This document shows, piece after piece, positions 7,586 to 53,990 of a stretch of DNA of 64,000 bases. The position numbers and the translations under genes are program-made. This DNA comes from a virus. The stretch is taken from positions 14,972 through 78,971 of IMG/VR virus record IMGVR_UViG_3300044837_000112, one strand, 5' to 3'. The notes beneath the pieces are model-generated. The model was not told the DNA's origin. It did not search any database and was given only the letters and a program-made list of their open reading frames with translations. Numbering within the stretch: the first letter of the stretch is position 1; each line of letters begins with the position of its first letter.

Positions 7586-7850
7586 ACGCGGTCTGACGGT
7601 AGTATCGCCCCATGAGATCGAACTCATCGGCATCCCACTGGAAAAGCAACACGAGCTAGACCCCGAGCAACTATGGCGGACGATGATGACGGCCGCCATG
7701 ATTTGCTTGACGCGGTGTAACCAGATTATTCTTATGACCGGCTGGAGCGAATCGCGCGGTGCGAGACGCGAACTAGAGTCCGCGTTGACATGCGGGCATG
7801 GGTTGTGGTACTATGATCCCGATACCGACAATCTGATTGAGGTAAAATAG
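7386..7850 (+). CDS. DUF4406 / nucleoside 2-deoxyribosyltransferase-like protein
   Basis: VFYLAGRMTGLPEYNYPTF...SP...C..I..M.GW..SRGARRE motif; start uncertain. Confidence 0.8.
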   Translation: MATASDATSSGRVKLKGSSERLKTKLPWLPQPWTAKQGPVFYLAGRMTGLPEYNYPTFRKASARLRERGLTVVSPHEIELIGIPLEKQHELDPEQLWRTMMTAAMICLTRCNQIILMTGWSESRGARRELESALTCGHGLWYYDPDTDNLIEVK

Positions 7851-9075: not shown

Positions 9076-9526
9076 ACCCGACTTCGAACACGGCGAGCCC
9101 GCACCAAAGCCAGGAACTGGTCCATCGATGCATGACCTGATCCTGGAAAATATCAAGATGCAACGCTTCATGTCCGAGCAGCATCTTGCAAACGGAGTCG
9201 CGCCGATCAACTCGCTGGCGACGCTCGATGCTGCAGCGGAGCGTATCAAGCGTCGCAAGGAATACGGCGCGGAGAAGTACAAAACAATCCTCCAGGCAAA
9301 CAACGGTCGCGACTCCCTCAACGATCTCCTCGACGAGATGGAAGACGTGCTCGCCTACAGCCGACAGCACGCCGAGGAGTTCGCCCAGTCGGAGATCGTG
9401 GATCTGGATGTCTTCAACATGATGCTGGCGCAGAAGCGTAACGTCTTCCTCCGGCTCCTTGACATCTACCTCGACCTGATAGAGATGAAGATCCTGCAGG
9501 AGCCGGCGGTCGATAGTGCCATATGA
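9065..9526 (+). CDS. Helical protein, possibly MazG-like nucleotide pyrophosphohydrolase fold
   Basis: R...G.EKY...L...NGRD.L.D..DE..D...Y pattern; GGAGG RBS; function is inference. Confidence 0.5.
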   Translation: MGTEPDFEHGEPAPKPGTGPSMHDLILENIKMQRFMSEQHLANGVAPINSLATLDAAAERIKRRKEYGAEKYKTILQANNGRDSLNDLLDEMEDVLAYSRQHAEEFAQSEIVDLDVFNMMLAQKRNVFLRLLDIYLDLIEMKILQEPAVDSAI

Positions 9527-11008: not shown

Positions 11009-12149
11009 CGCTACTTCGCTGCAAACCTTCGTGGAATGTCCGGCGAAGTTCCAGGCGATGATGATTGACCGCGCGGGCACCTTCAGTGGCGACGCTGCGA
11101 CGCTAGGTAGCTGTCTGCACTCTGTGCTGGAAGAGTTCGTCAATCCAGTCGACATGGCTGTTGGTAACTGGGACTGGGATAAGATGGAGTTCCTGTGGTT
11201 CTCCGCTTGGCTGAAGTTCTTTCCGGGCCAGCCGCCGCGTGGTGATATCTGGGACGACGGCCTAAAGATTCTGCAAGGTTGGTTTAATCGGACTGGCATG
11301 CTACAGGACATCCAAGAGGGCGTCGTCGTCTCTCGAGAGATTAAGCACTTCTTTCCGGTGCCGTATCTGTACGAAGGCGAGAAAGGCGAAGTCAACTTCA
11401 ACTACATCATCGACCGGCTCGATCAGATCGATGACACTACCTGGCGCGTTGTGGACTACAAGTCGCAGCGGATTCCGTGGTCGGCTGAGGAGATGCGGAA
11501 GAAGCTGCAGGTCCTCCTCTACGCGTTAGCCGTCAAGATAGCGCACCCGGAGGCGACGAAGATCTGGGTGCAGTTCGACTTCCTGCGCTCCGGTACCGTC
11601 TCGGTGTTGTTCGAGTACGATGACCTGGTCGACGCCTGGAGACTGGTAAAGACTCTGCTGCAGCAGGTAGTCGACACGGACGTGGACGCTACGCCCGAGC
11701 GGCTGAACGAGAACTGTGGCTACTGCGTGCGCAAGCTGCGCTGTATAACCCTGCTGAAGCACCGGGTCCACGGCATCCTCGGCATGTCGGAGGATGACCT
11801 CGCAGCCGCATACCTGGATCTCAAGGATTCCATCAAGGCCCTCGGTATCCTGAAGGAGGAGATCGAGAATTCCTTCCTAGTAAAGGCGGCGGCGGAGGAT
11901 ATCCTCGACTGGTATACCGAAGAGGGTATGCTGATCAAGGTAACGGCGCCGTCGCGGCGCAGCATTAACCGTGACAGGATGTCCGACATCCTCGGCAAAG
12001 AACTAATGACAAAGTACGGCCGGATCAACGTCGGAGATCTTGATACCCTCCGTGCCGATCCGGCCCTTACCTTTGAACAGAAATCCTTGCTGAACTCTGC
12101 AATCGAGATGAAGCAGGGTGAACTGGGAATCTCAATCAAGAGGAAGTAG
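10989..12149 (+). CDS. Cas4/RecB-like PD-(D/E)XK exonuclease
   Basis: SATSL..F.ECP, IIDRLD, VVDYKS, Q...YA, C.YC....C. Confidence 0.9.
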   Translation: MIPRTISATSLQTFVECPAKFQAMMIDRAGTFSGDAATLGSCLHSVLEEFVNPVDMAVGNWDWDKMEFLWFSAWLKFFPGQPPRGDIWDDGLKILQGWFNRTGMLQDIQEGVVVSREIKHFFPVPYLYEGEKGEVNFNYIIDRLDQIDDTTWRVVDYKSQRIPWSAEEMRKKLQVLLYALAVKIAHPEATKIWVQFDFLRSGTVSVLFEYDDLVDAWRLVKTLLQQVVDTDVDATPERLNENCGYCVRKLRCITLLKHRVHGILGMSEDDLAAAYLDLKDSIKALGILKEEIENSFLVKAAAEDILDWYTEEGMLIKVTAPSRRSINRDRMSDILGKELMTKYGRINVGDLDTLRADPALTFEQKSLLNSAIEMKQGELGISIKRK

Positions 12150-12154
12150 AGTCC

Positions 12155-12583
12155 TCAATAATTCAGCAGTATCGTGAACGTCATGGGAAAGTCGTTCACG
12201 GTGATGGTGAACCAGTGATTGGTCCCACCGGTCACGTAGCCGAGTCGTTGCCAGCCACCTGCACCGGGCACAAGCCAGCCGGACGCGATCACAGACCCAG
12301 TGCCACCGGTCGCCGACGTGTACTGGATCAGCTTGAACGTTGCAGGCTGGTTATCACTTGGCGTGTAGTCCTTGTAGTTGACCTCGCCACAGCTGGGCGA
12401 CTCCTTGACGCGCGAGTAGAGACCGTTGCCGGTACCTCCACGCGTGGCCGTGGCGCAGCCTTCCGGCGGTATAACCGTGTGGGGGCTGATAACTCCGACA
12501 TGGGGCGCAGCCGCCTGGGCGGCGGACACTGGCACTGCGATGAGGCCAGCTGCCAGCACGAGTGCAACGAAGAACTTGCGCAT
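12155..12583 (-). CDS. Secreted protein with signal peptide
   Basis: MRKFFVALVLAAGLIAVPVSAAQA signal peptide; AAAGG RBS. Confidence 0.7.
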   Translation of the reverse strand: MRKFFVALVLAAGLIAVPVSAAQAAAPHVGVISPHTVIPPEGCATATRGGTGNGLYSRVKESPSCGEVNYKDYTPSDNQPATFKLIQYTSATGGTGSVIASGWLVPGAGGWQRLGYVTGGTNHWFTITVNDFPMTFTILLNY

Positions 12584-12595: not shown

Positions 12596-13075
12596 CTATC
12601 GGTGCTTCTTTGACGGACTCGTGGAGGGAGTAGGACTCGGAATGCGTACTGGCGCGAAGTTGCCGGTGCAGCGGAGGGCCGTACGACCTGCTAGGATTGC
12701 CTGGTAGCTCTGGATGTACTGGTCGCGAAGTGGGCCAGCGGGACGAAGCTCCGGGTGGTAGCCGGTCAGTATTAGATTCCAGACCGGACACAGTACGATG
12801 CTCGAAGTGATATCCTGCTGGTGTCGTACCTGTTGTTCGACGTTAAACAGGTAGCCGGTCAGTACAACATCGAAAAGGAAACTGATAATCAGCGCAACAG
12901 TTGAGTACCAGTTAATCTTACTGCGCTTCGTCGTGGTCGCTAGCTGGGCCGACATTGCACCCGCCAGCGTTGTCACGATTCCAGTGAGTTGCGCAAGCTC
13001 TTGTTTGATGCCACCCGCTTCCTGGGCAAGCGTCTCGGCCGCCTGGGAGTCATGTACTTCTATAGGCTCGGTCAT
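12596..13075 (-). CDS. Membrane protein of lysis cassette
   Basis: Coiled coil, one TM helix, Cys pair; GGAG RBS before ATG 13075. Confidence 0.6.
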   Translation of the reverse strand: MTEPIEVHDSQAAETLAQEAGGIKQELAQLTGIVTTLAGAMSAQLATTTKRSKINWYSTVALIISFLFDVVLTGYLFNVEQQVRHQQDITSSIVLCPVWNLILTGYHPELRPAGPLRDQYIQSYQAILAGRTALRCTGNFAPVRIPSPTPSTSPSKKHR

Positions 13076-13263: not shown

Positions 13264-13539
13264 TCAGGGCCTTCTCTCGTCGAACAACGCCAGGACGCGA
13301 GCAGTTGCATCTGTTGCTCGCGTCAACTGGGCGATGACGTTGTCGCGGAGGGTATCGTTCAGGAGTTTTAGTTCTGCCTCCGCGCGGTCGGCGCGCATCA
13401 CCTCGCGCTCGTTGTTCTTCTGAAGCATGTTGAACAGCTTCACAAGACCGTAGAGCGCGAGGAGCGCGACGACACCGACGATGCCGTACTGAAGGAACGC
13501 ACCTGTTGGGTCTGGAGCAGCCCCTTCAGCAGGCGTCAT
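13264..13539 (-). CDS. Holin-like membrane protein
   Basis: Single TM helix then coiled coil; AGGAGG RBS; next to endolysin. Confidence 0.65.
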   Translation of the reverse strand: MTPAEGAAPDPTGAFLQYGIVGVVALLALYGLVKLFNMLQKNNEREVMRADRAEAELKLLNDTLRDNVIAQLTRATDATARVLALFDERRP

Positions 13540-13565: not shown

Positions 13566-14258
13566 CTATTCGCCGAGCTTCGACGTAGGCGAGTGGGGCG
13601 TCGCGACTGATGGGGTGGGCGGCGCGACCGGGGCGGTCTGCGCCGCGATCTTGTCGAGGTCCTTGATCATCTGCGGGTTCTGGATGTTGACCTCGGTGTT
13701 TGTCCGAGCGCGCAGCTGCACCAGCAACTGTGCGACCGTACCCTTGTCCGGCAGTGTGTACTCCATGATCGCCTTCGCGATCTCGTCAGCAGTAGGCATG
13801 TCGCCCTCCATGAAATCGATGAGTGAGACGGGGGGAATGTACGCTTCGGCAACCAGGTCGTAACCAGTCCCGGTTGCCGCGTTCTTGCCTGTCGAGCCGT
13901 GCTTGCTGGACACGTGGATGTGATCCTTGTGCCGGTCGCGGTTCGGGTTGTTCGGCTGATAGGGCGCACCCTTCCAGCCGTTGGCCTCATTGCGGCCGTA
14001 GATCCGGTCGTCGTGAATCACGTACTGTAGGTCGGTGACGTCGCCGAGCAGCCACGCCAGGATGATCGGGGCGGCGGCAGCATAGGACGTGTCGGTCCTG
14101 GTCATGATGTCGAGCGCATGCCAGATACCACGCGAATCAGCGTTGTGGTCCGACCTCTCGGACTGATGCTTGGGGTCTCCAAAGGAGAAGATCGTCATCG
14201 CCGGATAGACGGCGTGGACCATCGCCTGGCGAGCGGCGAGGTTCCTGGCGAGTGGCAT
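13566..14258 (-). CDS. Endolysin (Zn peptidase, M15-like)
   Basis: SDH......HALDI ... YVI...RI ... H.DHIHVS Zn-peptidase motifs; ATG overlaps holin TGA. Confidence 0.8.
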   Translation of the reverse strand: MPLARNLAARQAMVHAVYPAMTIFSFGDPKHQSERSDHNADSRGIWHALDIMTRTDTSYAAAAPIILAWLLGDVTDLQYVIHDDRIYGRNEANGWKGAPYQPNNPNRDRHKDHIHVSSKHGSTGKNAATGTGYDLVAEAYIPPVSLIDFMEGDMPTADEIAKAIMEYTLPDKGTVAQLLVQLRARTNTEVNIQNPQMIKDLDKIAAQTAPVAPPTPSVATPHSPTSKLGE

Positions 14259-14722
14259 CACTTGCCTCCGATGCTGGGGGGTGGTGGAAGATACAGGGGT
14301 AGGCCAGTTATCGGCCGAGGTGTAGCGGGAGTGTCCGCAGCAGTGTTTACCACCGCGACTGCATCGGTTGCAACAGCGAGCCCTGCGGCAACGTGACTCG
14401 GATCGTTGACGGGATCGGGCTTGTAGACAACGACACGTTGATTTGCCGTGACTGCACCGCGAGTCCAGAACGCCTGGACGAGTCCCACGACTGCAGTAGC
14501 AAGAGCAATAACAGCTCCAGTACTCTGATCTGAGACAACCAGTCCAGCCGCACCAGCAAGCGCAGCAACGGCAACCACTGCACCTCGATACATGGCCGGT
14601 TCGAGGTGCGTGAGGTGCCACCAGAATCCAACGTCCTCCGGGATGCCGTCGGCATGAAAGTCAACCGCCTCGTCCTTGAGAAGCTCCAGCCCCTTTACGA
14701 GCTGACTTACATTGAGCGCCAT
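14258..14722 (-). CDS. Holin
   Basis: EPA....AVVAV two TM helices ending R..VT, typical of actinophage holins; GGAGG RBS. Confidence 0.7.
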   Translation of the reverse strand: MALNVSQLVKGLELLKDEAVDFHADGIPEDVGFWWHLTHLEPAMYRGAVVAVAALAGAAGLVVSDQSTGAVIALATAVVGLVQAFWTRGAVTANQRVVVYKPDPVNDPSHVAAGLAVATDAVAVVNTAADTPATPRPITGLPLYLPPPPSIGGK

Positions 14723-15123: not shown

Positions 15124-17538
15124 TTACGGGGCTCGGTAAATCCTATACGAAATAAGTGTTCCACCTGTAGTTGTCCTCATGAGCCACACCAGTGCACTGG
15201 TAGATCCGAGACCATTCCAGCCGGTAGCTACACCCATGAGATTAGTATTAGGAGACGTTAGCATATTTTCTGTGCCAGTACCAGTAATCGTAAAAGACAG
15301 TGTTGAACTTATTGGAGTATTGGCAACAGCCGTGGTAACAGTAACGTTACCAATAACCTCATTACCGACCGATAAGGCGCCCGGAACAGTCGTCGTCGTC
15401 CCAGAATCACCGAGGACAACAGTTCCACCGACGAACTGCCCATTAACCTTGGCCGTCGATCCACTGGAGTCGACGATTGCAATGAGGACAGCCCACTCTG
15501 GCGGCGACCAGTAGCCAGCACAAGCCAAGTTGTCGACGATGAACAGACCACCGACCAGGCGGGCGTCGGCGTTCTGATATGTCTTCTGCGGCACACTCTG
15601 TGCCAGTACTCCTGGTGGGATTCCCCACCAGAGCGACTGATTCGCGGCGAGTGGCACGCCCGACGCGGTACAGGTAACGAATGGCGAGCCCGTGAAGATA
15701 TTAGCAGGGTAAACATTGATCGTGCCTGACGTCGGACATGGGAGTATTGCCTTGCCAACATTGAGGCCACGCCGCGATCGGCCGATGCCAGCGATCTCAA
15801 ACTGTGAACTCCACTTTAGGAACCCACTAATATAACTTGTGGTGCTTCCAGTTGAAGAGTGCGACAGAACCGCAGCACCGCGTTGTCCGATCAACAGATC
15901 TGGATTACGCCACGGACCCGTACTGGCTGCCGAAGTCGGGAACTGATAACTGGTCCCAGTAGTACTCCAGGGGTTGTTACCGTCGCTGTAGCCGAGGATG
16001 CCATTGTTCAGCGGCGGTGCTGTGTCATACTCGAAAACGACGAGACCTGTCTTCGTACTCTTGGGATAATTCCAGGAGTTAAGATTTTTGAAGCGAACAA
16101 CGAAAGGAACGTTATTCGAGTTGTTGTTAAACTGAAGAAAATCAAGGTAGATACGAATCCAGATCTCACCAGGTGAGGTCGTAACGTCTACACCGGGCGC
16201 ACCGTGAATCGTCTGGCGCATGCCAATCTCGAGCGAGTAGTCACTCTGTGAACTCATATCGTTAGGAGAGAACTGGAAGATACCACAGTAGAAGATAGTA
16301 GTCGTTGCCGGAGTACCAGCAATCTGAATGTAAGGATTACAGTATGCAGCATTCACAGGCGCAGAGAAGGTAGCAAAAACACTGGTCCATGTAGTCGCTA
16401 CCAGGTTAGTCGGCAATGGCGACGCAACAGTACTAATAAGTGTGTTAGCGCTGTCATACCAGTCAATGCCGATGCGGGAGTCAGCTGTCGTCACAGTCGC
16501 GTACAGTCTAGTACTCACCAGATAGCTAGCGTTTGGAACGACCGAGTAACGCGTCGTCGCTCCCTCTGCCACCTTGAGCACCGCATGCGAGACGTTCGAT
16601 TGCATCTTCATCGATGCCACAGCAAACGAGGCGGTATCGATCGGCGTTGATACCGCAGTAACTGTCACCTGCGTATCGGCGCTGTTATTCCAATCGTACA
16701 GGTTTGGCACGCCAGCCAGATCGAAGTATTGATGCGCATTCAGAACCGAACCGACCGGTGCGTTCTCGTACTGGTAATAGTCTGCCAGTAACTTGTACCA
16801 AGTATCCTGAGAGCCACCATAGCCGTTTGGTGGGCCATTGAAACAGTTACCACCAGACATGAATGCCTGATCAAAAAGACTAGTGCCAAAACGATATCTG
16901 TTTGTACCAATCGGCGACGCTACCTCTACTTCAAACAGTCCATCCCAGATGTCATTTTGATCGCTAAATCCTGCGCGCTGGTCAACTGCGAAGTTACGAG
17001 TGAAGGGGCCGATGTTGATCGCGTACGGCCCACCAGACTTCGGAAGAGTTCCATCACCGGTCCACATCGTCCGAAACGTATAGTCTGCACCACGGACGTA
17101 CTCTGGGGCGCCGGTTGCACCGAGGGCAATTGTCTGATTACCAGAAGTCGCCCAGTCGCTGGCAAATTGGCCGCCAGTGAGGATTTCGGTAACGTAGAGA
17201 GAACCAAAGAATGATTGGACAAGGACCTGCGAACCGATGCCCTGCGTAGACGTAGAGACAGAGCCAGAAAACTTTGTGTCCCAAATTCCGGGCAGGGTAG
17301 ACGGGAACAGATTAACTGTGATTGACTGCGTATCACTCGGAAACCAGACCTGAGCACGGTAATTAGTGAAGTCAACGGAAACGACCCTACCCTTCTTGGC
17401 TGGTGGATTGAGACTGTTGCCAACCTTCTCGATGTGCCTTGTAAGGATGTCTCGGATGGCAGCAGCCGTGGAAGGATGATCAAATCCCTTGGTGTCGGGC
17501 GGCGCAGGCATCCCCTGAACATCTACTGGGCTTGTCAT
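15124..17538 (-). CDS. Minor tail / receptor-binding protein with CBM-like domain
   Basis: Beta-rich, Thr/Ser-rich; IGIDWYDS...TWT....AP.NA.Y CBM4/9-like segment; position after hub protein. Confidence 0.7.
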   Translation of the reverse strand: MTSPVDVQGMPAPPDTKGFDHPSTAAAIRDILTRHIEKVGNSLNPPAKKGRVVSVDFTNYRAQVWFPSDTQSITVNLFPSTLPGIWDTKFSGSVSTSTQGIGSQVLVQSFFGSLYVTEILTGGQFASDWATSGNQTIALGATGAPEYVRGADYTFRTMWTGDGTLPKSGGPYAINIGPFTRNFAVDQRAGFSDQNDIWDGLFEVEVASPIGTNRYRFGTSLFDQAFMSGGNCFNGPPNGYGGSQDTWYKLLADYYQYENAPVGSVLNAHQYFDLAGVPNLYDWNNSADTQVTVTAVSTPIDTASFAVASMKMQSNVSHAVLKVAEGATTRYSVVPNASYLVSTRLYATVTTADSRIGIDWYDSANTLISTVASPLPTNLVATTWTSVFATFSAPVNAAYCNPYIQIAGTPATTTIFYCGIFQFSPNDMSSQSDYSLEIGMRQTIHGAPGVDVTTSPGEIWIRIYLDFLQFNNNSNNVPFVVRFKNLNSWNYPKSTKTGLVVFEYDTAPPLNNGILGYSDGNNPWSTTGTSYQFPTSAASTGPWRNPDLLIGQRGAAVLSHSSTGSTTSYISGFLKWSSQFEIAGIGRSRRGLNVGKAILPCPTSGTINVYPANIFTGSPFVTCTASGVPLAANQSLWWGIPPGVLAQSVPQKTYQNADARLVGGLFIVDNLACAGYWSPPEWAVLIAIVDSSGSTAKVNGQFVGGTVVLGDSGTTTTVPGALSVGNEVIGNVTVTTAVANTPISSTLSFTITGTGTENMLTSPNTNLMGVATGWNGLGSTSALVWLMRTTTGGTLISYRIYRAP

Positions 17539-42452: not shown

Positions 42453-43358
42453 ATGAGCGTCCAAGAATACACTGACGATATGCTGAAGGATGTTGCCAAA
42501 CTACTGGCGAAGCACTTCATTGCCAGGTCTGACGTGATGGCCCAGCAGCACCCCGACGGAGGCTACTCGCCTACCCGCGGGCCCCGTAACCCTGACGGTA
42601 CACCTGGTGACCTGGCTGGCTTCTCCATGCCGGCCCTGATGAACCACCTCAAGGGTACGGCGACCCTGGGCCACTATCTGCTGAACAAAGATAACCAGTG
42701 CAAGCTGTTCGCCTTTGATATTGATATCGACGGCATCAAGTCGGGTACGCCGAAAGAGGATTGGTGTCTGCTTCCAACCTCGTACATCGACGGCGAGTAT
42801 CGCGAGTACTTCCACATCGATGGGAGGCTCGCCTGGAAGACTGATATGGCGGGATTCCAGCTAGACGGCGGGCCTACCTATACTCGGGATATGCAAATAG
42901 TGAGCCGCGACTTCCTGCGGTACCAGTTGCGCCGAGTGGCCGACGAACTGATGATCGCGATCCGAGAGAACTTGGAAATCCCGACCGTCTTCGCGTACAC
43001 CGGCAACAAGGGTCTGCACGTGTACGGGTTTACTGGCCTGATGGACGCCAAAGATGTGCGTGAAGGGGCCGAAATCTGTGCGGAAGCCGCTAGAATGCGC
43101 CCGCATAAGGGGTCTAACTTCTGGAAACCGACCGATAACTTCGCTGAACCCTGCGCCCTAACGGTTGAGATCTTCCCCAAGCAGACGACCATCGGCGAGG
43201 ACGGCTTCGGGAATCTGCTCCGTCTGCCCCTCGGAAAGAACCTGAAGAACCCGGAACACCCCACTTTCTTCTGTTCTGACGTGCCAGGTGGCGAAAGATC
43301 CTCTATCACCCCGGTCGATACTCTGCAGCTGTTTGAAACAGTCTTCCGAGGTCTGTAA
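42453..43358 (+). CDS. Archaeo-eukaryotic primase (AEP, TOTE-primase-like)
   Basis: FAFDIDID, YTGNKGLHVY, EIFPKQ.....FGNLLRLPLG motifs. Confidence 0.88.
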   Translation: MSVQEYTDDMLKDVAKLLAKHFIARSDVMAQQHPDGGYSPTRGPRNPDGTPGDLAGFSMPALMNHLKGTATLGHYLLNKDNQCKLFAFDIDIDGIKSGTPKEDWCLLPTSYIDGEYREYFHIDGRLAWKTDMAGFQLDGGPTYTRDMQIVSRDFLRYQLRRVADELMIAIRENLEIPTVFAYTGNKGLHVYGFTGLMDAKDVREGAEICAEAARMRPHKGSNFWKPTDNFAEPCALTVEIFPKQTTIGEDGFGNLLRLPLGKNLKNPEHPTFFCSDVPGGERSSITPVDTLQLFETVFRGL

Positions 43359-43478: not shown

Positions 43479-45419
43479 ATGACAGATGTGAGTACGGCGG
43501 GGACTGTAGCGGTAGGTACTACAGTCCCCGCACCGCGATCTGGCAAGTTTGCGGAGGCTCTTGCAGCCCGCCGGGCGGCGAAGGCGGCAGAGTCTGGGGT
43601 AGAGAAGTCGCTACTAGAGGCAGTAGAAGACTTCATCCCGGACATACCACCAGACCCGCTCACGGAGTATCAGTCGAAGGTGAACGCAGCCATCGAGGAG
43701 ATCACCTTCCAGGAGGTCTTCGAGTTGATGGTCTCGATGGGGATCATCTCCAGGTCGGCTAAGCCGATCAGCTCCTGGGTCGGCGACTCCAACAAGTTCT
43801 TCTGTCCGGACCCGTCCCACGACAACTCCGGCGGCACCATGAGTGCCTGGGGTTCCCGCGAGAAGGGGAAGTGGACCTGCTCCAAAGGCTGCGGCGATGG
43901 GGCAGGTGGTGGCGACAAGTTGTCGCTGGCTAAATATCTGTTCGGCGAAGAGTTCCACGACAGATGCAACAAATTAGCTGGCGCCCTGCGTGGTGTTAAG
44001 AAGCCTGAATTTTTGGTTGGTGGCCTCCCGCCGGAGTCACCAGTCGCCCTGGTGACACCTTCGACTTCAGTAGCTTCAGCTGAAGTAGCTGAAGTCGGTC
44101 CAGCCGGACCAGGGGAAACTACAGATCCGTTGCTACTGCGTTTCGATGGGAATGCAGTCCTTGCCTTCTCGTCAGTGAAGGATTCGTTCCTTCACAAATA
44201 CGTTGCCGCAATGGCGCTCAGCTCATCCCCGGAAGAATTTAATCTGCCACTAGCCATGCTCGTGATTGCACTGGTCAGTGGCCGCCGCGTACAGTTGGAC
44301 GACGAGTACCCCGTGATCCCGACGATGGGCATTGTCCTTGTTGGCACCTCGGGTGATGGAAAGACGAACAGCATAAAGCCAGCCAAGAAGCTAATGAGAA
44401 CTGTTGATCCAGCCGGTCCCGAGAGGTTCGGCATCAACATCGACAAGAACGTAATCTCCGGACAGGAACTCGTCCACACCTTCCGGAAGGTTGAAAAGGA
44501 TCTCGAAACCGGCGCCGTAACGGAGTACCCGATCCGGGCGCTACTCGAGTACCCAGAGTTCTCCGGCTTCTTTGGCAGTACGAAGATGACTGGGTCTTCA
44601 CTCAAGACGTTCCTACACGAGATGCTCGATGGGGACGAATACCTCGGCTACGGGAGCCGCTCCGCTGGAGGCAAGGTGATTGCCCGGAACGCTTTCGGAT
44701 GCGTCATCTCGACAGTACAGACGGATATGCTGTCTTCCCTGTTTACGCGGGAAGACGCCGCGTCCGGCTTCATGAACCGCTTCATTATGATCAGCGGAAC
44801 AGAGAAGGAGCAGGTTGGAATCAATCGAGCTGTCATCGACAGCGATGGGTATACCGCTGCCCTGCGAGAGGTGAAGTCCTTCTGCCACGGCACGGGGCGA
44901 TCGAAGCCAATCCTCTGGAACCCTGACGCAGAAGCTCTGTATAACAAGATCTATAAAGAATATCTCAAACCGATCAAGGACGCTGACCGGCGTGCGCTAC
45001 TAAAGCGTATCGACCTATACTTCAAAAAGTTCTGTCTCATCTTTGCAATCAACGAGCGTTCTGAGTATGTGCTGCCACACCATGTACAGATGGCCAGACA
45101 GATGACCACGTACATCGTGCCGACAAGTCAGACCATCTCCGAGAACGTCTTCGTCGCGGACGCGAACGACATGGACGAGTGGCTCGTCCGTCGGATCGGG
45201 GCGCTGGAGCTGCTGTCCAGAGAGAAGGAACCGACCAAGGAGCACCACGGCCCAACCGTCGCCGCACTCGGACGCGAGTTTAAGAAGAAGAAATGGACCA
45301 TTGAATCCGTCAACAAGGCACTCAAGGGTCTCGAGATCGCCGGCATCATCAAGGGGATCGACGGCGGCGGCAAGCGTGGCCAGCGAACTAAGTACTACTA
45401 TCTTATCGAGCCAGACTAA
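43479..45419 (+). CDS. Zn-finger + DUF3987-like replicative helicase/ATPase
   Basis: CPDPSHD...C..GC...GGD Zn finger; GTSGDGKT Walker A; SGFMNRF; C-terminal wHTH-like segment. Confidence 0.8.
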   Translation: MTDVSTAGTVAVGTTVPAPRSGKFAEALAARRAAKAAESGVEKSLLEAVEDFIPDIPPDPLTEYQSKVNAAIEEITFQEVFELMVSMGIISRSAKPISSWVGDSNKFFCPDPSHDNSGGTMSAWGSREKGKWTCSKGCGDGAGGGDKLSLAKYLFGEEFHDRCNKLAGALRGVKKPEFLVGGLPPESPVALVTPSTSVASAEVAEVGPAGPGETTDPLLLRFDGNAVLAFSSVKDSFLHKYVAAMALSSSPEEFNLPLAMLVIALVSGRRVQLDDEYPVIPTMGIVLVGTSGDGKTNSIKPAKKLMRTVDPAGPERFGINIDKNVISGQELVHTFRKVEKDLETGAVTEYPIRALLEYPEFSGFFGSTKMTGSSLKTFLHEMLDGDEYLGYGSRSAGGKVIARNAFGCVISTVQTDMLSSLFTREDAASGFMNRFIMISGTEKEQVGINRAVIDSDGYTAALREVKSFCHGTGRSKPILWNPDAEALYNKIYKEYLKPIKDADRRALLKRIDLYFKKFCLIFAINERSEYVLPHHVQMARQMTTYIVPTSQTISENVFVADANDMDEWLVRRIGALELLSREKEPTKEHHGPTVAALGREFKKKKWTIESVNKALKGLEIAGIIKGIDGGGKRGQRTKYYYLIEPD

Positions 45420-45775: not shown

Positions 45776-46330
45776 ATCAACTAGCGGTAATGCGGAGCAA
45801 AATAATGCGGAGCACGAATCTTTTTCGTGCTCCGCATTACTCTCTGTCACGGGCAATAATGCGGAGTAAATCGGCTCCTACTTATTTACTACGAATTACT
45901 TTGGCTAGTTGATCTATAAATCGGTTATTCGGAGCGGCTCCCCAAAACATAAAGGAGCACGTTTGACCTGCGGTTATGCATAGAGGAGTGCGTAAAATGC
46001 GGAGCCGTACCGTCTATACCCGTAGGGCCATACAGGTATCAAGAAACATCAAGTACTAAATTTCTCCCCTACGGTTACCGTGTGTAGTCATCCGAGTCCT
46101 TATACGAAGACTTTGATCACGGTATACGCCTAGCTCCTAATTCCCCTAATTCTCCTCATTGCGTTTTCGCAGGTCAAACGCCATATGATCATGCTCATAC
46201 TACTACTACTACTAACTCCTACTTACTTATATATATATATATTATAGATAATGAACCATCTGAAGACCCTAAGATGGGGGGTGTAGGCGAGGGTCTATAC
46301 AACTGGCTATATCTTTCTAGATGATCATGC
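45773..46330. other. Putative replication origin (iteron-like TAATGCGGAG repeats plus AT-rich tract)
   Basis: TAATGCGGAG at 45788, 45803, 45857, inverted at 45830; 16-bp-stem hairpin 45803-45839; (TAC)n/(TA)n tract ~46198-46252; adjacent to primase/helicase. Confidence 0.55.
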
Positions 46331-46447
46331 TTTCAGAAAAACTTGGTGTGTGTTGCGCGAGGCAAGAGAGGCCCGATTTCGTGCCCGGTTTGTCATTTTT
46401 TGTCCGGTATGCCCCGATAATTTGTCCGTTTTGCCCCGATTCTAATG

Positions 46448-46649
46448 TGGACAAGTCCACATCGGACTGTCCGTTTTGCACCGATCTGTACCATTGGTCA
46501 GTCCGATATGGCACAGATGCCCGAGTCCACATTGGACAGGTCTACATCGGACTGTCCGTTATACCCCGATCTGTACCATTGGCCAGTCCGATATGCACGA
46601 GATGACCCTGTTCCACATTGGACAGGTCTACATCGGACTGTCCGTTATG
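46448..46649. repeat. Tandem repeat, 85-86 bp unit, ~2.3 copies
   Basis: Units begin TGGACA(A/G)GTC.ACATCGGACTGTCCGTT at 46448, 46533, 46619. Confidence 0.9.
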
Positions 46650-46759
46650 TCGTGATATCATCACCGATAGTGTGCACTATCGGTGATCTAGACCATCAGA
46701 TGGTCCAAAGGTATGACCATTAGCATGACCAGCCATCGTACAGGTGTGCTATGCGAGAC

Positions 46760-46773
46760 GTTTCACGTGAAAC
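46760..46773. promoter_or_regulatory. parS: parS site 1
   Basis: GTTTCACGTGAAAC inside 20-bp perfect palindrome 46757-46776. Confidence 0.85.
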
Positions 46774-47003
46774 GTCAAAGATCATCTTCGTGTGGTCGCG
46801 TAGGGCTAGTTGATCTTGGTCTAGTCTTGGCGCGAGACTAGTTCACATCCACCATACCGTCTGGTGGTAAGACCTTTCCAACGGACCATCTGCATGACTG
46901 TCTAATGGTCCTACCATTAGACCATTAGACAGTCAGACCATTGGCACAGCGGCCAGTCAAACCAGTAGTACGTGACACAAACTAAAAAGAAAGTTAACAG
47001 TCC

Positions 47004-47300
47004 GGTAAACAACCTTTACAATTGCCATCCAAGCAACTGTAAAGAAACCTAACCCAATGGTAAACAACCTTTACAGTTGCCCATACCCAACCATCCTAGG
47101 AAGCTAGGAGGCTAGGATGCCCACCACCAGCACTGTTAAGACTCTTTACAGTAACGCAAACCTTCTTTACAATTGCATCAGCAACTATCATCGCGGCAAA
47201 CATCTAACTGTTAACAAACCTTCTTCAATAGCAAACCTTGTTAACAGTCATCCATGATCACTGTTAACAAACCTTACCGTACAGCCAACCTTCCTAACAG
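47004..47300. repeat. AT-rich degenerate repeats
   Basis: GGTAAACAACCTTTACA(A/G)TTGCC at 47004 and 47059; ACTGTTAACAAACCTT at 47207 and 47260; further partial copies. Confidence 0.8.
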
Positions 47301-47746
47301 TCGTACCACACCCACAACCTAGCCCATCTGTCAACCAGAAACGCCGGGCAATCCACCGAACGGTCTGACATCCAGCCCTAGCGGTTGGGTAGCCGAGCCG
47401 TTCGGTCATTCCGCTAGTTGATCTACGCCCGGCCGTCCGACGTCATCCGCCAATGGCCCATCTAGACCCCCTAGCGTCGCCACCGACGGGCGTTCTAGCG
47501 CCTGGTTATAACCACACCGACCTAGGCGATTTCTCGCGGCACGATCGATCCTAGCGCGTTTCCGCTGGTCAACCGATGTGATCATTTGTCCGTATCGGTC
47601 CGCGTAGCGCCTACGGTGATCCAGTAGGCCACCGAATGTGGCCGAAAAACCCTTGACAATCACCCATCTGGCCGATACCTCATCGCCCGTAGGCGAGCTG
47701 TCCTAGCTTCCTAGGATGCGTCGCATCCCCCAAAGATCTAGGGCAC

Positions 47747-47803
47747 CTGGGCATCCTAGGACACTAGGAAGGTGACCCGGCTGGGCATCCTAGGACACTA
47801 GGA
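47747..47803. repeat. 23-bp direct repeat CTGGGCATCCTAGGACACTAGGA x2
   Basis: Copies at 47747 and 47781. Confidence 0.85.
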
Positions 47804-48234
47804 CGCTGGCCGAAAGGTTGATCCTCCGAACGGTTGGCCAGGGCTGACCAGAAGTCTTTTTTGTCTAGCCGTTCGACAGCCGTTCTAGCGTGCATATGCG
47901 TGTCCTAGGCACTAGGATTGGCGTAGCGCCAAAGACGGAACGAAAAACGGTACGGGGTAGGGGACGGGCCAGGGGCCAGGCGCAACCTAGCGCATGCGGG
48001 CCCCGGGCTAGTTGTTCGTTGACATCTGAATGTGCCTGGTTACTAATGGGCACCACTCTGACCAACCATGGCGCTAGCTAGCGCCCGTTGCGTGATCTCG
48101 TAGACCTATGTGTCCGGGATATCCGACATGCCTCAGCCATGGTTTAGCCCGTAGACGGGCTGGTCACCTGACGATGACTTTGGTTACGTCCTTATGACGG
48201 GCCGTTTTGATCCTCGTACGTTTCATGGTTTCTG

Positions 48235-48248
48235 GTTTCACGTGAAAC
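48235..48248. promoter_or_regulatory. parS: parS site 2
   Basis: GTTTCACGTGAAAC, intergenic. Confidence 0.85.
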
Positions 48249-48275
48249 ATCGAGATCAACTAAAAGGCGGCTGTT

Positions 48276-48560
48276 ATGAGTGTTTTGGGCGTTATGACTC
48301 ACCGTGATTTTCACGCGGAAACGCACGCGTTCCTCGCTAGTAAGGGCATCGACACGTCGTCGGACTCGTTCGACGAGATCGACGTCGATGACCTCCGCAC
48401 CATGATCAGCCAGACGTTCGCCGACGAGGCGAACCTGGAGAAACTGTTTGCTATGCCGTATAACTCGGGCGCCCAGTTGGCGCTCGGTGGCGCGTTGTCC
48501 GTACTGCGGGCGTTGCGCAACGACTACGCCGACTTGATCAAGTACCTGATCGGAGCCTGA
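48276..48560 (+). CDS. Hypothetical protein (cassette 1)
   Basis: AAAAGGCGG RBS-like motif 5 nt before ATG. Confidence 0.75.
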   Translation: MSVLGVMTHRDFHAETHAFLASKGIDTSSDSFDEIDVDDLRTMISQTFADEANLEKLFAMPYNSGAQLALGGALSVLRALRNDYADLIKYLIGA

Positions 48561-48562
48561 TC

Positions 48563-48757
48563 ATGACGAAAACGGCTCGCACCATCGCTAGTCGGCTGGC
48601 CCGCGAATATGACGTTTGCGCTGGCAACTACGAGCCAATCGGCGCGCAGATGGTCAACGATTGTGCACGCGCGCTCGACCTAGACTTTCCGGGCGTATGG
48701 GCCCACTACCGGGCGCTGGTAGCGGCGTCCGACTACGCCGCGCTGGTTCGGGCGTAG
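48563..48757 (+). CDS. Hypothetical protein (cassette 1)
   Basis: GGAG RBS; stop lies just inside the right IR arm. Confidence 0.7.
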   Translation: MTKTARTIASRLAREYDVCAGNYEPIGAQMVNDCARALDLDFPGVWAHYRALVAASDYAALVRA

Positions 48758-48801
48758 GCAGGCGAGATCAAAACGGCCCGTGATATGGACGTAACCAAAT
48801 G

Positions 48802-49181
48802 TGTCTGGTTTGAGTCATCTAGGCCGAAAGCTGACCTAAAGGCGGATTTACCATGTTTGAGACAGACAAATTGAGCGATGCCGTGCGCGTCGGGACCTTT
48901 TCCGACATGCGCAAGACCGACTCGCTCCAGTGGATTCAGCGCGTTAGTGGTTTCGTGCTTGTCCGCTTCATGGAGGTTTCTTCGTTTTATCACTTTGAGG
49001 ACTTTGTGTCCGTTATCGCGTACGGCTATGAGATGGATGAGCTGGAATGCGCGCTGCTCATGACCTACGTTGCACCGTACCAGCCCGCTATGGCCGTTCT
49101 GGCGCCCGTAGGCGCCTAGTGGTTGTTCGGTAGTAGAGTCCGATTCATACGTCTTTCGGCCTAGATGACCCAAACCAGACA
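48802..49181. repeat. Cassette 2 bounded by 29-bp inverted repeat
   Basis: Arms 48802-48830 and 49153-49181, 1 mismatch. Confidence 0.9.
48853..49119 (+). CDS. Hypothetical protein (cassette 2)
   Basis: AAAGGCGG before ATG. Confidence 0.7.
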   Translation: MFETDKLSDAVRVGTFSDMRKTDSLQWIQRVSGFVLVRFMEVSSFYHFEDFVSVIAYGYEMDELECALLMTYVAPYQPAMAVLAPVGA

Positions 49182-49228
49182 TCGTCAATTTCGCATTGAG
49201 TCATAAATGCGCCCGGTCTGGATGTTTG

Positions 49229-49242
49229 GTTTCACGTGAAAC
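49229..49242. promoter_or_regulatory. parS: parS site 3
   Basis: GTTTCACGTGAAAC, intergenic. Confidence 0.85.
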
Positions 49243-49276
49243 ATCTCATGATCAGTTAGACCAAAAGGCGGATATT

Positions 49277-49639
49277 ATGATCGATCTTGCACACGCGGAA
49301 AGCCACCCTAGCGACATGATCTTCGTCGTGACTCGTGGTGACTACGTCAGCCGCGAAGCGCTGTTCGGCGTGGCCAGCACGTTCAGTGACTGGAACGAGC
49401 CCGGACGTCGTCGGACGGATGGCGACATCACCACGCTGCCCCGCGTCTACTGGAACCTCGGTGGCACGCTGGTCGAGCTATACGTCGCGGTAGGCACGGG
49501 TACGGCTGGCACGGGCGACCGGTTCGAAGGTCGCGCGACCGAGGGGCTGCACGTAGTCGAGCTGCGTATCCCCGACGATGCTGCGGCGCGGGCCCGCTAC
49601 ACAGGCGCCATGAAGATCTTCACCCACTTTTACCTGTAG
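49277..49639 (+). CDS. Hypothetical protein (cassette 3)
   Basis: AAAAGGCGG before ATG 49277. Confidence 0.7.
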   Translation: MIDLAHAESHPSDMIFVVTRGDYVSREALFGVASTFSDWNEPGRRRTDGDITTLPRVYWNLGGTLVELYVAVGTGTAGTGDRFEGRATEGLHVVELRIPDDAAARARYTGAMKIFTHFYL

Positions 49640-49757
49640 TGCCCCATACCGGGCGCATCTATGACTCAATGCGGAATATATGGAATTGTCAGTCATACCA
49701 GGGCATCGGGCCCCTAGTTCATCTTTCACGTTTTTGGATGCCCACTAGGAGCCCTTC

Positions 49758-50432
49758 ATGCCCGAAAATAACGATATGCGTTACACGCTTCACGTGCTCG
49801 GCGAGTTGAAGATCAAACTTCGCGGCGACTACGGCCGCGAATGGTCATCGATCTTGTATGTTTCACGTGAAACATGCACCTGCTGTGGGCCGAAGGCCGA
49901 CAACGAGGTAGCGCAAACGATCTGTTTGATGTGCGCCGAAACGTGGAACGCTGACCACAAGATCAAAACGAACAACGATACCTTCATGACCGCTATCGCG
50001 GTTCGCTCCATGATCAGCCGTAGCATCATCGAGAATGACCGACGTCGGACCGCCCCGCGTAACCAGGCGGATGTGCACATCGTGGCTGGTCCGGCCGGTC
50101 CGGATAGCAACCCGGTAGTCACGTGCGACTGTGGGCCGGGCGTCGCGGTCGGAATGACCGACGACTTCGGTCTGAAGGAGTTCCTGCTGACGGCCGATAG
50201 TGCGGCGCTCGATCCGACCAGTGAGCCAATGCAGGCTTACCGTGCGGCACGCGCCGAGGGCGCGTCGGCCGATATGGCTGGGGCCCGTGCCCTGCAGGTG
50301 TACCGGGCGATCCACTCGGCCGACGACGAGGCTCACATCGGTGACGATGGAGCCGAATCTATCGATGACATGCGCAAGGCGCTCAACGAGCGCAACCGTA
50401 TCGCCATCGAGACCGGTCCGTATCGCGCCTAG
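49758..50432 (+). CDS. Hypothetical Cys-rich protein (cassette 4)
   Basis: AGGAG RBS; CTCC...CLMC motif. Confidence 0.7.
   Translation: MPENNDMRYTLHVLGELKIKLRGDYGREWSSILYVSRETCTCCGPKADNEVAQTICLMCAETWNADHKIKTNNDTFMTAIAVRSMISRSIIENDRRRTAPRNQADVHIVAGPAGPDSNPVVTCDCGPGVAVGMTDDFGLKEFLLTADSAALDPTSEPMQAYRAARAEGASADMAGARALQVYRAIHSADDEAHIGDDGAESIDDMRKALNERNRIAIETGPYRA
49860..49873. promoter_or_regulatory. parS: parS site 4 (inside CDS, read as VSRET)
   Basis: ATGTTTCACGTGAAACAT 18-bp palindrome. Confidence 0.85.
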
Positions 50433-50575
50433 TCCCACCCTGCTAGACCGCTAGACCTAGCCCTACCTAGGCGCTCGGTGCCCTGATATGACTGACAATT
50501 CCATCCATTCTAATCATCTGTAGTGTGTACGGGCGTGGCCCTATCTCCACAAGATCAACAAAAGGCGGCTCGGAC

Positions 50576-50848
50576 ATGCTAGATCGTGAAGATTACTTGC
50601 AGTCGCAACAAGTGGACGACTGGCTCATGAGCCATGGCGCCCACTGGAACGACGGTCGTCAATCCACGTTCAATACGTGCTTTGCGGCCGACTGGAACGA
50701 CGCGCACGGCATTGTTTCACGTGAAACACTCGGTAACCCGATTGTGTTCACGCGGACGATGTTGCACGAGGGCCCCGGTCCGGACACCGAAACGCCCTGG
50801 TACGAGGCTAACCGTAGGCACGGCCACTTCGTGCAGGGTCACCTGTGA
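50576..50848 (+). CDS. Hypothetical protein (cassette 5)
   Basis: AAAAGGCGG before ATG 50576. Confidence 0.65.
   Translation: MLDREDYLQSQQVDDWLMSHGAHWNDGRQSTFNTCFAADWNDAHGIVSRETLGNPIVFTRTMLHEGPGPDTETPWYEANRRHGHFVQGHL
50714..50727. promoter_or_regulatory. parS: parS site 5 (inside CDS)
   Basis: TGTTTCACGTGAAACA. Confidence 0.85.
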
Positions 50849-51048
50849 ACGGGTCCAGCGGGTCGCCGGCAGGCGAGCTGGGTGCGTACCTACTTATCGG
50901 CATCGTTCTATGGCTCACCTACCGGCGCCGCGTCCGTCGTATCAAGATCGAAGCTGCCCGTATCGCTAGGGCTGCTGCGATCATGGAGGCAGCGGAAGTG
51001 TTCGACGGTACCGGCCCGCTAGTCGACCCCGACGAGGAGGCATCATGA
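50845..51048 (+). CDS. Small membrane protein (cassette 5)
   Basis: TM helix followed by Arg cluster; GTGA overlap. Confidence 0.6.
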   Translation: MNGSSGSPAGELGAYLLIGIVLWLTYRRRVRRIKIEAARIARAAAIMEAAEVFDGTGPLVDPDEEAS

Positions 51049-51599
51049 AGTGCGGTCACTGTCAGTCACGTGATGTGACGGTCAGTCACGTGCGGACATG
51101 CGCCAGCCCGACCCGTCAGCCCGTTGTACCGGCCCGTGAAGCCGTCTATAGCGGGTGTGGTGGGTCAGCTAGGGCCGTTACCATTCCAGCCCGCACGATG
51201 GCGCTGGTTGGCACTAGCGGGCCCTCGTGGGACACGGTCGGGGCAGCGGTTCGGACCGAGTCGCATGTTTCACGTGAAACATCGACGTACCCACACCTGG
51301 ACGAGCACGCGGGGATGTACCGCGATCCGCGTAACGGCTCGATCTACAAGGTACAAAAAGCGGTGCACGGGTCTGGCCATCTATACGCCAAGTCGCTAGT
51401 AGTGCACGGTCCGGGTAGTGCCGAGTTCCAGATGGCGCCCGGCATGGTCCGCAAGATCAAACTGGACTGGCGCATGACGGTGGACGAGGCTCGTACCTAC
51501 GGCGCGCTCTACGGTGTGTGTGTCCGATGTGGTCGCACGCTGACCGATGAGACATCGATCGCCGAGGGTATCGGCCCGATATGCGCTAGCAAGATTTAA
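51045..51599 (+). CDS. DUF6011-like Zn-binding protein
   Basis: CVRCGRTLTDETSIAEGIGPICA C-terminal motif; GAGGAGG RBS. Confidence 0.8.
   Translation: MKCGHCQSRDVTVSHVRTCASPTRQPVVPAREAVYSGCGGSARAVTIPARTMALVGTSGPSWDTVGAAVRTESHVSRETSTYPHLDEHAGMYRDPRNGSIYKVQKAVHGSGHLYAKSLVVHGPGSAEFQMAPGMVRKIKLDWRMTVDEARTYGALYGVCVRCGRTLTDETSIAEGIGPICASKI
51267..51280. promoter_or_regulatory. parS: parS site 6 (inside CDS)
   Basis: ATGTTTCACGTGAAACAT. Confidence 0.85.
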
Positions 51600-51687
51600 C
51601 CGAAAGTACTAGGTACTACCTGCACCCGTACGCACCACAGATGATTAGAATGGATGGATTAGTCAGCTGTCTAGAAAAGGCGGAAAC

Positions 51688-52778: not shown

Positions 52779-52832
52779 CTGCTAGTCATCGAGCGCGGCG
52801 CCCAGCCGCCTGACTTACCCGAGGAGTGCACC

Positions 52833-53990
52833 ATGGCACAGCGTGACGCGGTTGACGAGACGGCCCCCGAGGCACCCGTCGATCCGAGTACTACCAGCGA
52901 GACCGTGGCCACCGAGGTCACCAGCACCGAGGCGCCCGTCGTCGAGGGTACCGAAGCCGTAAGCGCCGAGGGTACCGAGGCATCCGTCGTCGAGGGTACC
53001 GACGTCGCCGAGGCGACGGACCAGCAGCCCGAGCCGGAGAAGCCGAAGGTCATCACGGCCGACGAGGTCAAGAAGTTCGGCGAGTTCGTCACGGCCGACG
53101 AGGGTGCGATCAAGACCGCCGACAAGGCCAACGGAGCCCTGACCACCGAAGCGCTCACGGCGGTTACCGAGTTCTACGCGGAGCTGCCCAATACGACGGT
53201 CAAAAAGGCCGTCATCGCGTGGCTCGCCGAGCAGATGGTCGAAGCGCTGGCCGAGCGTATGGACGCCATCACGGCCCGATCCTTCAGCCTGATCAAGAAG
53301 GCGCTCGAGGGTGTCGTCACCCACAAGCAGACGGCCATCAAGGAGCCGGTCGACCTGAAGGCGGCCTTCATCGACGCCGCGACGGCCCTGTACCTGGGGC
53401 CGACGTTCCTGGTTCAGCCCGAGGGCCTGCCGGCCGACTGGCAGGTGCAGGTCCAGGCGCTCGGCCTGAAGCTGGCCGAGTCCGACGTTCCCGCGTACCT
53501 CGAGTACCTGGCCGCGAAGGCGACCTGGGACGCGCTGTCCGACGAGGACAAGGCCGCCACGGTGCAGGTCGAGGGTGCCAACGACATGGAGCTGGTCAAC
53601 CCGCAGCCGGTCGCGCCGCAGGTGTCGGCGATCGTGGTCCGTGCCGCGAACCTGGCGCGGGGCAACGTGACCCGTGCCGCGAAGGCGCCGAAGGCCGACG
53701 GTACCAAGGCGCCGCGTGCAGCGGCCGGAGGTCCGGCATACGACGGTCCGAAGCGGTCCATCACCAAGCACATCGCCGAGTTCATGGCCACGCAGCCCGC
53801 CGGTCACTTCGCCAAGATCTCCGAAATCCGGGCGTTCAAGTCGGAGGAGTACCCGGAGGGCAACGCCAGCCAGGGTGCGATCAGCGCGGCGCTGTTCAAC
53901 GCGGACGGCCCGAAGGATGTCAGCGCGAAGCTGCCCGGCATCGCGGCCGTCGAGGTTGAGGGTCGCAAGGGTGCCCGCAAGGCCGCCTGA
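52833..53990 (+). CDS. Ala/Glu-rich protein with C-terminal winged-helix-like domain
   Basis: GAGGAG RBS, extreme GC3 bias suggesting high expression; C-terminal domain paralogous to 54971..55369. Confidence 0.75.
   Translation: MAQRDAVDETAPEAPVDPSTTSETVATEVTSTEAPVVEGTEAVSAEGTEASVVEGTDVAEATDQQPEPEKPKVITADEVKKFGEFVTADEGAIKTADKANGALTTEALTAVTEFYAELPNTTVKKAVIAWLAEQMVEALAERMDAITARSFSLIKKALEGVVTHKQTAIKEPVDLKAAFIDAATALYLGPTFLVQPEGLPADWQVQVQALGLKLAESDVPAYLEYLAAKATWDALSDEDKAATVQVEGANDMELVNPQPVAPQVSAIVVRAANLARGNVTRAAKAPKADGTKAPRAAAGGPAYDGPKRSITKHIAEFMATQPAGHFAKISEIRAFKSEEYPEGNASQGAISAALFNADGPKDVSAKLPGIAAVEVEGRKGARKAA

Follow-up and report, generated by a model that had tools for sequence, protein, structure and literature searches.

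Covarying long-range inverted repeats, very probably RNA helices, enclose five early gene units of a viral genome

Introduction

What purpose is served when successive gene units of a viral operon are each enclosed by a long inverted repeat of their own? The question is raised by a 64,000-nucleotide (nt) stretch of viral DNA (hereafter the window), which corresponds to bases 14972-78971 of the IMG/VR record IMGVR_UViG_3300044837_000112, a virus genome of 78,971 base pairs (bp) rated 99% complete. Five units of small genes lie here end to end, each bracketed by one of five inverted repeats (IR1 to IR5) and forming with it what we call a cassette. A sequence-only reading of the window had offered two explanations for this array, i.e. 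RNA stems that close each gene unit into a loop, or DNA cassettes that can be inverted or excised. We analyzed the repeats, their counterparts in a diverged relative, their predicted folding, and the genes around them. Judged from this comparison, pairing between the arms is under selection. The five repeats, taken alone, are very probably selected RNA helices; on balance we also favor the fuller explanation that these long-range helices close early gene units and are probably cleaved by RNase III of the host, which would yield end-paired messages.

Five inverted repeats enclose successive gene units

The five long-range repeats tile the window from 48179 to 51666, with arms of 29-44 nt that are 86-97% complementary and loops of 322-1091 nt. 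They are listed here with the calculated energies of their stem duplexes:

48179-48212 (left arm) and 48766-48799 (right arm), + strand: IR1, 34 nt, 32 paired, loop 553 nt, -55.1 kcal/mol
48802-48830 and 49153-49181, + strand: IR2, 29 nt, 28 paired, loop 322 nt, -49.8 kcal/mol
49188-49221 and 49644-49677, + strand: IR3, 34 nt, 31 paired, loop 422 nt, -54.3 kcal/mol
49674-49717 and 50467-50510, + strand: IR4, 44 nt, 86% paired, loop 749 nt, -65.3 kcal/mol
50492-50533 and 51625-51666, + strand: IR5, 42 nt, 90% paired, loop 1091 nt, -65.2 kcal/mol

All five arm pairs of the sequence-only reading were recovered where it had placed them. The lengths that it gave for IR1 and IR2 stand, whereas those for IR3, IR4, and IR5 (26, 38, and 26 nt) grow to 34, 44, and 42 nt. 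As a consequence of these extended arms, the tiling that it described is retained with other spacings: instead of gaps of 2-10 nt and one overlap of 5 nt, successive stems are separated by gaps of 2 and 6 nt and then overlap by 4 and 19 nt. Its count of 1-3 small + strand open reading frames (ORFs) per unit and its description of the mismatch spectrum were both reproduced.

We scanned the whole 78,971-bp genome for inverted repeats of at least 26 nt with at least 85% identity and loops of 100-3000 nt, and obtained exactly five, every one of them inside the array. The same scan of 30 dinucleotide-preserving shuffled genomes yielded one such repeat in total, and a chance origin of the five repeats is excluded. 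No arm pair has a second copy in the genome, no direct repeats flanking the arms were seen in the sequence of the array, and no Rfam family matched within it.

The repeats are positioned precisely with respect to the genes. Left arms end 22-63 nt ahead of a start codon and right arms begin 4-34 nt past a stop codon (for IR1, 8 nt past the stop codon at 48757), and none of the arms overlaps an ORF or a AAAGGCGG ribosome-binding site. This Shine-Dalgarno-like sequence, with C in place of an A of AGGAGG, is found at 48264, 48840, 49265, 50562, and 51677, i.e. ahead of the first gene in cassettes 1, 2, 3, and 5 and ahead of the gene that follows the array; cassette 4 has a different leader.

The sequence-only reading had also noted a short core common to the arms. 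What is present is a loose central YCAT (TCAT in IR2-IR5, TTAT in IR1; likewise in the relative described below), and as a shared core it is only weakly real. A non-Watson-Crick pair lies a few nt from this YCAT in every stem, at a position that is kept in IR1, IR4, and IR5, recalling the internal loops of RNase III sites in phage T7. Finally, the 19-nt segment 50492-50510, which is both the end of the IR4 right arm and the start of the IR5 left arm, is complementary to 49674-49692 and to 51648-51666, and stems 4 and 5 compete for it in the window.

Arm pairing is conserved in a diverged relative

The helicase encoded upstream of the array has one homologue (50% identical) in a collection of 5.8 billion proteins. 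It is encoded on the IMG/VR contig 3300020034_000166 (16.9 kb; hereafter L008), which runs colinear with the window, from the gene for the primase (80% identical) across a long non-coding region to that for a 386-amino-acid (aa) protein beyond the array. Each of the five stems has its counterpart in L008, at the corresponding gene boundary:

12485-12514 and 12886-12915: L008 stem 1
12926-12953 and 13273-13300: L008 stem 2
13302-13330 and 13789-13817: L008 stem 3, with 7 compensatory pair changes relative to IR3
13828-13869 and 14326-14367: L008 stem 4
14390-14418 and 15174-15202: L008 stem 5

The AAAGGCGG ribosome-binding site is kept as well, with copies at 12563, 12964, 13365, 14434, and 15226 of L008, all five on the + strand. 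Stems 4 and 5 do not overlap in L008 and are 22 nt apart.

Other searches added no further relative. Alignment-based scans of metagenome, viral, and GTDB contigs with the helicase or the primase returned L008 alone (= L033), and searches with arm-core patterns returned L008 and chance matches only. Scans of IMG/VR with single proteins (the 386-aa protein, the cassette-4 protein, and the helicase) gave no match. Among cultured phages, no long-range repeats were found in ReqiDocB7, TIN4, Kvothe, Mbo2, Trogglehumper, or Reynauld, and a DUF6011 gene of Gordonia phage Mahdia, a family also represented in cassette 5, is without enclosing repeats.

We aligned the four strands of each stem (two from the window, two from L008) and classified the resulting 154 pair positions, a comparison of two sequences only. 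Unchanged Watson-Crick pairs account for 106 positions. At 23 positions both sides have changed and are paired in both phages, and at 7 one side has changed with pairing kept through a + strand G.U. Pairing is missing from one phage at 8 positions with one changed side and at 4 with two changed sides. The remaining 6 positions are non-Watson-Crick with the same bases in both phages (three G.U, two A.C, and one U.U).

Shuffling of partner columns within stems gave a mean of 1.7 compensatory changes and a maximum of 8 in 10,000 shuffles, and random placement of the observed numbers of substitutions gave 3.2 with a maximum of 12 in 10,000 trials, compared with the 23 observed. Lost pairs numbered 6, compared with 46 expected under random placement. 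The arms are 75-81% identical between the two phages, and seven of the eight adjacent pieces of untranslated region (UTR) are 41-67% identical, the eighth reaching 80%. Because the five stems persist through 23 compensatory changes at 50% helicase identity, this comparison indicates selection for complementarity in each arm pair; arm covariation had been named beforehand as a check on the stems, and it is present. Six shared imperfect positions are more than expected by chance (hypergeometric p = 0.0016). Since frequent gene conversion would have wiped out these six ancestral imperfections, the alignment also indicates that pairing is not maintained by frequent arm-to-arm copying.

Predicted folding and transcription of the array

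The duplexes range from -46 to -65 kcal/mol over both phages. In the window as in L008, the minimum free energy (MFE) fold of every cassette contains its stem (26-40 arm pairs), and the MFE fold of a 3,621-nt transcript across the array contains all five stems together. The junctions, made of a right arm and the next left arm, give local folds of only -12 to -17 kcal/mol with no defined hairpin; on these predictions they are neither terminators nor hairpins of the T7 type.

Crude scans of the window and L008 found no match to a + strand consensus promoter or terminator inside either array. Two conserved blocks upstream are candidates for early signals:

47655..47689, + strand: conserved TTGACA block, the best candidate for an early promoter, kept at L008 12078
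48013..48025, + strand: conserved block GTTCGTTGACA, weakly boxA-like, kept at L008 12463, 11 nt ahead of the first stem

At L008 12078 the scan scores TTGACA-16-GATGAT. A sigma-70 promoter in each left arm was considered and rejected: the arms have a TTG-containing core, which by eye has no -10 partner at any spacing, and the scans found none.

Several other features were observed in the non-coding region that precedes the array. From 45800 to 48270 (10400-12480 in L008) there are blocks of differing short repeats, including iteron-like GTCCACATCGGACTGTCCG units at 46.4-46.65 kb, and several blocks of the region are kept in L008. Promoter-like TTAACA/TTTACA-17-TACAAT sequences lie at 46994 and 47145, and local hairpins rich in CCTAGG at 47700-47804. 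Between GTTCGTTGACA and the first stem, ~140-150 nt of the window (48035-48175) have no counterpart in L008; within this insert lie the palindrome GCGCTAGCTAGCGC and, at 48150-48165, a short hairpin. It is possible that the 2.4-kb region combines an origin with early control functions.

Gene content and genome context

The cargo of the cassettes consists of the following ORFs:

48276..48757, + strand: cassette 1, two ORFs, 48276-48560 (94 aa) and 48563-48757 (64 aa), no Pfam or PHROG match
48853..49119, + strand: cassette 2, an 88-aa ORF, protein 89% identical to its L008 counterpart, no family match
49277..49639, + strand: cassette 3, a 120-aa ORF, 56-68% tblastx identity to L008
49758..50432, + strand: cassette 4, a 224-aa ORF, no family match
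50576..51599, + strand: cassette 5, three ORFs, 50576-50848 (90 aa), 50845-51048 (67 aa), and 51045-51599 (184 aa)

The third ORF of cassette 5 carries a DUF6011 C-terminus (PF19474, E = 3e-14); apart from this, no Pfam or PHROG family was found among the cargo proteins, and they had no usable Atlas match. The five units follow one another in the same order, and point the same way, in the window phage and in L008. The genes themselves are less constant. In cassette 1, the two genes of the window share no homology with the lone ORF (96 aa) that L008 carries in this slot, despite homologous arms, 5' leader, and ribosome-binding site. Homology in cassette 4 is limited to the N-terminal ~92 aa of the window protein (65%), matched by a 130-aa L008 ORF, and the first ORF of cassette 5 has no counterpart in L008, leaving the window with one gene more. 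The cargo can change inside conserved arms. Of the gain, loss, and inversion of cassettes for which the sequence-only reading suggested looking in relatives, turnover of cargo was thus seen and inversion was not.

The array occupies the following genomic setting. Terminase and portal genes extend leftward from ~42.0 kb of the window. The genes upstream of the array are:

42453-43358, rightward: primase
43479-45419, rightward: helicase

A 2.4-kb stretch 3' of the helicase gene (45.8-48.27 kb) has no credible ORFs; it is followed by the small + strand genes of the array and then by the 386-aa protein, which belongs to PHROG 6708. The only tyrosine recombinase of the phage is encoded outside the window, 50 kb from the array:

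G000:C1:11674-12102: Phage_integrase match (PF00589, E = 5e-23) in a 280-aa ORF

A family search of the genome found no serine recombinase. Gordonia, Rhodococcus, and Tsukamurella are the hosts of the closest cultured phages, whose genomes measure 72-83 kb and whose primases reach no more than 39% identity; an actinobacterial host is therefore probable.

The 14-nt sequence GTTTCACGTGAAAC is present in six exact copies (at 46760, 48235, 49229, 49860, 50714, and 51267) and nowhere else in the genome, in which 0.02 copies would be expected. The sequence is that of chromosomal parS sites, as in Mycobacterium smegmatis (PMC7022226). A copy lies in four of the five cassettes, and no link to the stems was found. 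L008 has copies at 11346, 12534, and 14013. These three sites are conserved in position with the window, falling in the non-coding region, in the leader of cassette 1, and inside the ORF of cassette 4, where the site reads VSRET in frame. A search with a pattern combining parS and the ribosome-binding site matched 24 contigs, L008 being the sole related one. In Rhodococcus phage ReqiDocB7 (L005), a hairpin GTTTCACGGGCAGCCCGTGAAAC occupies three spacers of the early array (7681-7703, ~8741, and 9196-9218; one copy with an extra G). It is made of two parS half-sites 9 nt apart and lies directly 5' of a TTGACA promoter.

Possible functions of the repeats

Among the explanations considered, RNA stems account best for the array because pairing is selected, the stems dominate the predicted fold of the + strand, and no match to a consensus promoter or terminator interrupts the array; in these respects the RNA proposal of the sequence-only reading gained support. 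Three further features count in the same direction: the array would be read as a sense message, ORFs and ribosome-binding sites are free of arm sequence, and each arm pair has its own sequence, which one DNA-binding protein could not read. To our knowledge, loops of 0.3-1.1 kb are usual for RNA stalks and cannot extrude as cruciforms from duplex DNA. We infer from these features that the paired molecule is RNA, that the array is one transcript, that the stems are cleaved by RNase III, and that paired ends stabilize the resulting messages.

In the mechanism that we propose, the early rightward transcript would probably start in the conserved upstream non-coding region and would cross the array without internal promoters or terminators. 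Within this transcript, the segment about 40-65 nt 5' of each unit's start codon would pair with the segment 4-34 nt past its last stop codon, turning each unit of 1-3 genes into a loop closed by a double-stranded stem of 28-44 bp, with neighboring stems abutting. Host RNase III would then cut the precursor into separate messages, each with its 5' end still paired to its 3' end. The paired ends would shield each message from end-dependent decay and make the expression of a unit independent of its neighbors, as with the leader-trailer stalks of 16S and 23S ribosomal RNA (rRNA).

Near-perfect double-stranded RNA of 28-44 bp is a textbook substrate of RNase III, and a cut is expected wherever the enzyme is present. 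The phage encodes neither RNase III nor the RtcB ligase, and it would therefore be the host enzyme that acts on the stems; the RNase III family was detected in a Corynebacterium glutamicum control. RNase III leaves a 5' phosphate and a 3' hydroxyl. Circularization of the messages is unsupported; the ligase result concerns RtcB, and RNA ligase families of the Rnl type were not searched. More tentatively, and with some doubt, we suggest that the array is a dedicated message architecture of the phage, in which every early unit has a helix "slot", host RNase III releases end-paired, exonuclease-resistant messages, and new accessory genes placed in a slot would be correctly expressed at once, conservation lying in the helix and not in the cargo.

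Several observations weigh against RNase III-processed RNA stems. A family search of the phage proteins did not find an RNase III. The strand on which pairing acts is weakly marked: in L008, the sense stems are in sum 20 kcal/mol more stable than the antisense stems and G.U pairs outnumber A.C pairs 10:4, whereas in the window A.C slightly outnumbers G.U (5 to 4) and stability favors the antisense stems by 3 kcal/mol. Pooled over both phages, the counts (14:9, p = 0.2) make a weak strand test, and it is in this asymmetry that the RNA proposal of the sequence-only reading found little backing; the caution of that reading, that mismatches leave RNA versus DNA undecided, still applies to the window taken by itself. 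Two A.C mismatches are kept in both phages and would not be neutral in sense RNA. As for transcription, the promoter is only a candidate, and the conserved TTGACA of L008 is just 11 nt ahead of the first arm; if transcription began only there, stem 1 would be truncated. The GTTCGTTGACA block matches 8 of 11 positions of the boxA of Escherichia coli or Bacillus subtilis (PMC13753749), with the CUUU core changed. Finally, every covariation count comes from two sequences, with a single relative, and compensatory change by itself would fit RNA pairing and a DNA-level need for complementarity alike.

The alternative that survives best keeps the helices as RNA and leaves them uncut, acting as insulators or decay barriers between cistrons, as blocks to Rho loading on a transcript rich in long leaders, or as closed loops that return terminating ribosomes to the start site, or regulating translation through alternative pairing. 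The pairing and covariation evidence fits it equally well, and the conserved internal mismatches near the stem centers could be antideterminants against cutting. We nevertheless regard it as unlikely, given that RNase III is generally expected to cut such double-stranded RNA and that its family is present in the C. glutamicum control. With its two alternative partners, segment 50492-50510 would be a possible switch in the window; because this alternative pairing is absent from L008, there is no conserved switch.

Action at the DNA level is improbable, be it as the ends of invertible or excisable cassettes, as attC-like fold-backs of single-stranded DNA, or as slots for accessory genes entered by homologous recombination. 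It would account for the variable cargo inside conserved arms (cassette 1 unrelated, cassette 4 half replaced, and cassette 5 with one extra gene), but phage genomes are commonly mosaic, with cargo exchanged where intergenic sequence is conserved, and here the exchange may be a side effect of the arms. The phage does encode a tyrosine recombinase, yet its gene is 50 kb away, and there is no serine invertase. Similarly, the arms share a loose central YCAT, but a common core of just 3-4 nt in otherwise pair-specific arms could not be read by a single recombinase. The mismatch spectrum of the window, with no RNA strand bias, also suits a DNA function. Against it stand the same order and orientation of five units in two phages diverged to 50% helicase identity, the lack of direct repeats flanking the arms, the size of the loops, which precludes cruciforms, and the avoidance of ORFs and ribosome-binding sites, which a DNA site would not require. 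The invertible or excisable cassettes of the sequence-only reading are accordingly disfavored.

It is very improbable that the repeats are functionless relics of tandem duplications or of insertions that split palindromes, kept alike by gene conversion between arms: the weak common core of the IR2-IR4 arms would be expected from unit duplication and the mix of transitions and transversions among the mismatches looks neutral, but the arms are better conserved than most adjacent untranslated sequence, there are 23 compensatory changes and only 6 losses over a long divergence, six ancestral mismatches that repeated conversion would remove survive in both lineages, and inverted repeats of this length carry a cost in inversions and should decay if useless.

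The covariation already shows selection of some kind for pairing. If the stems are processing or clamping signals, as in the RNase III mechanism that we favor, early operons of phages would apply the logic of rRNA maturation to protein-coding messages, with one transcript cut into individually stabilized units. Even expression and free exchange of tiny accessory genes in long runs would then be explained. Synthetic operons for actinobacteria would gain portable insulator parts, and RNase III would be a host dependency factor for such phages.

Comparison with known systems

Our literature searches returned no description of tiled, gene-enclosing stems in a phage operon, in agreement with the sequence-only reading, which knew of no phage system of this architecture. 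Mobile and invertible DNA elements share some of its traits. Like the Hin, Gin, and Cin segments, shufflons, and integron cassettes, the array has units bounded by inverted repeats and a variable cargo. Unlike invertible segments and shufflons, it has no common recombination core, no adjoining recombinase, and no alternative orientation in the window or L008. Unlike integron arrays, its repeats enclose the genes, its junctions are without local attC palindromes, and no integrase adjoins it. Elements resembling miniature inverted-repeat transposable elements (MITEs) or insertion sequences (ISs) differ from it too, since its arm pairs are single-copy, no direct repeats flank them, and the cargo has no transposase family match.

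In setting, the closest analogue is the processing of T7 early mRNA. Host RNase III divides this polycistronic transcript at sites R0.3-R1.3, whose stems have internal mismatches, and the remnants stabilize the products. T7 uses local intercistronic hairpins; here the two strands of a helix lie on opposite sides of the genes and the junctions fold weakly.

Where protein-coding messages are concerned, single-gene pairings of 5' and 3' UTRs come closest. In hok mRNA, the ends of the message are joined by fold-back (fbi) pairing. The array resembles such messages in that the two ends of one message would pair, which in those cases has consequences for stability and translation. The icaR message of Staphylococcus aureus has 5'-3' UTR pairing in which RNase III is involved (PMC3868564). 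In icaR and hok alike, one gene is concerned, and a short pairing covers its ribosome-binding site or renders the message inactive; the array differs in leaving the ribosome-binding site in the loop, in its stems of 28-44 bp, and in being tiled.

In mechanism, the closest analogue would be the leader-trailer stalk of rRNA operons. The stalks around 16S and 23S rRNA are cut by RNase III (PMC6582327). There, as here, flanks that are hundreds to thousands of nt apart pair into a long helix, and successive helices each have their own sequence. The long-range complementarity of at least about 20 bp that marks such stalks is present as five stems of 28-44 bp in both phages, and in the two sequences compared the pairing is maintained by compensatory change. 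The array is unlike the stalks in that its loops are protein-coding messages with ribosome-binding sites, in that five phage units abut, and in that we infer its cleavage.

Distant relatives of the window phage offer a last comparison. ReqiDocB7 and Tsukamurella phage TIN4 have, like the window, a helicase, a long non-coding region, a run of small ORFans, and a homologue of window 52830-53990, and they too have spacers, of ~90-100 nt, at every gene boundary. Their spacers differ in consisting of a local hairpin and a TTGACA...TAGACT promoter, with no long-range repeats. Because a hairpin and a strong promoter stand in the corresponding spacers of these relatives, the need to express small early genes as separate, stable units seems to be conserved among these phages, and the solution to differ: a promoter for each gene in ReqiDocB7 and TIN4, and in the window, if our reading holds, a helix for each unit.

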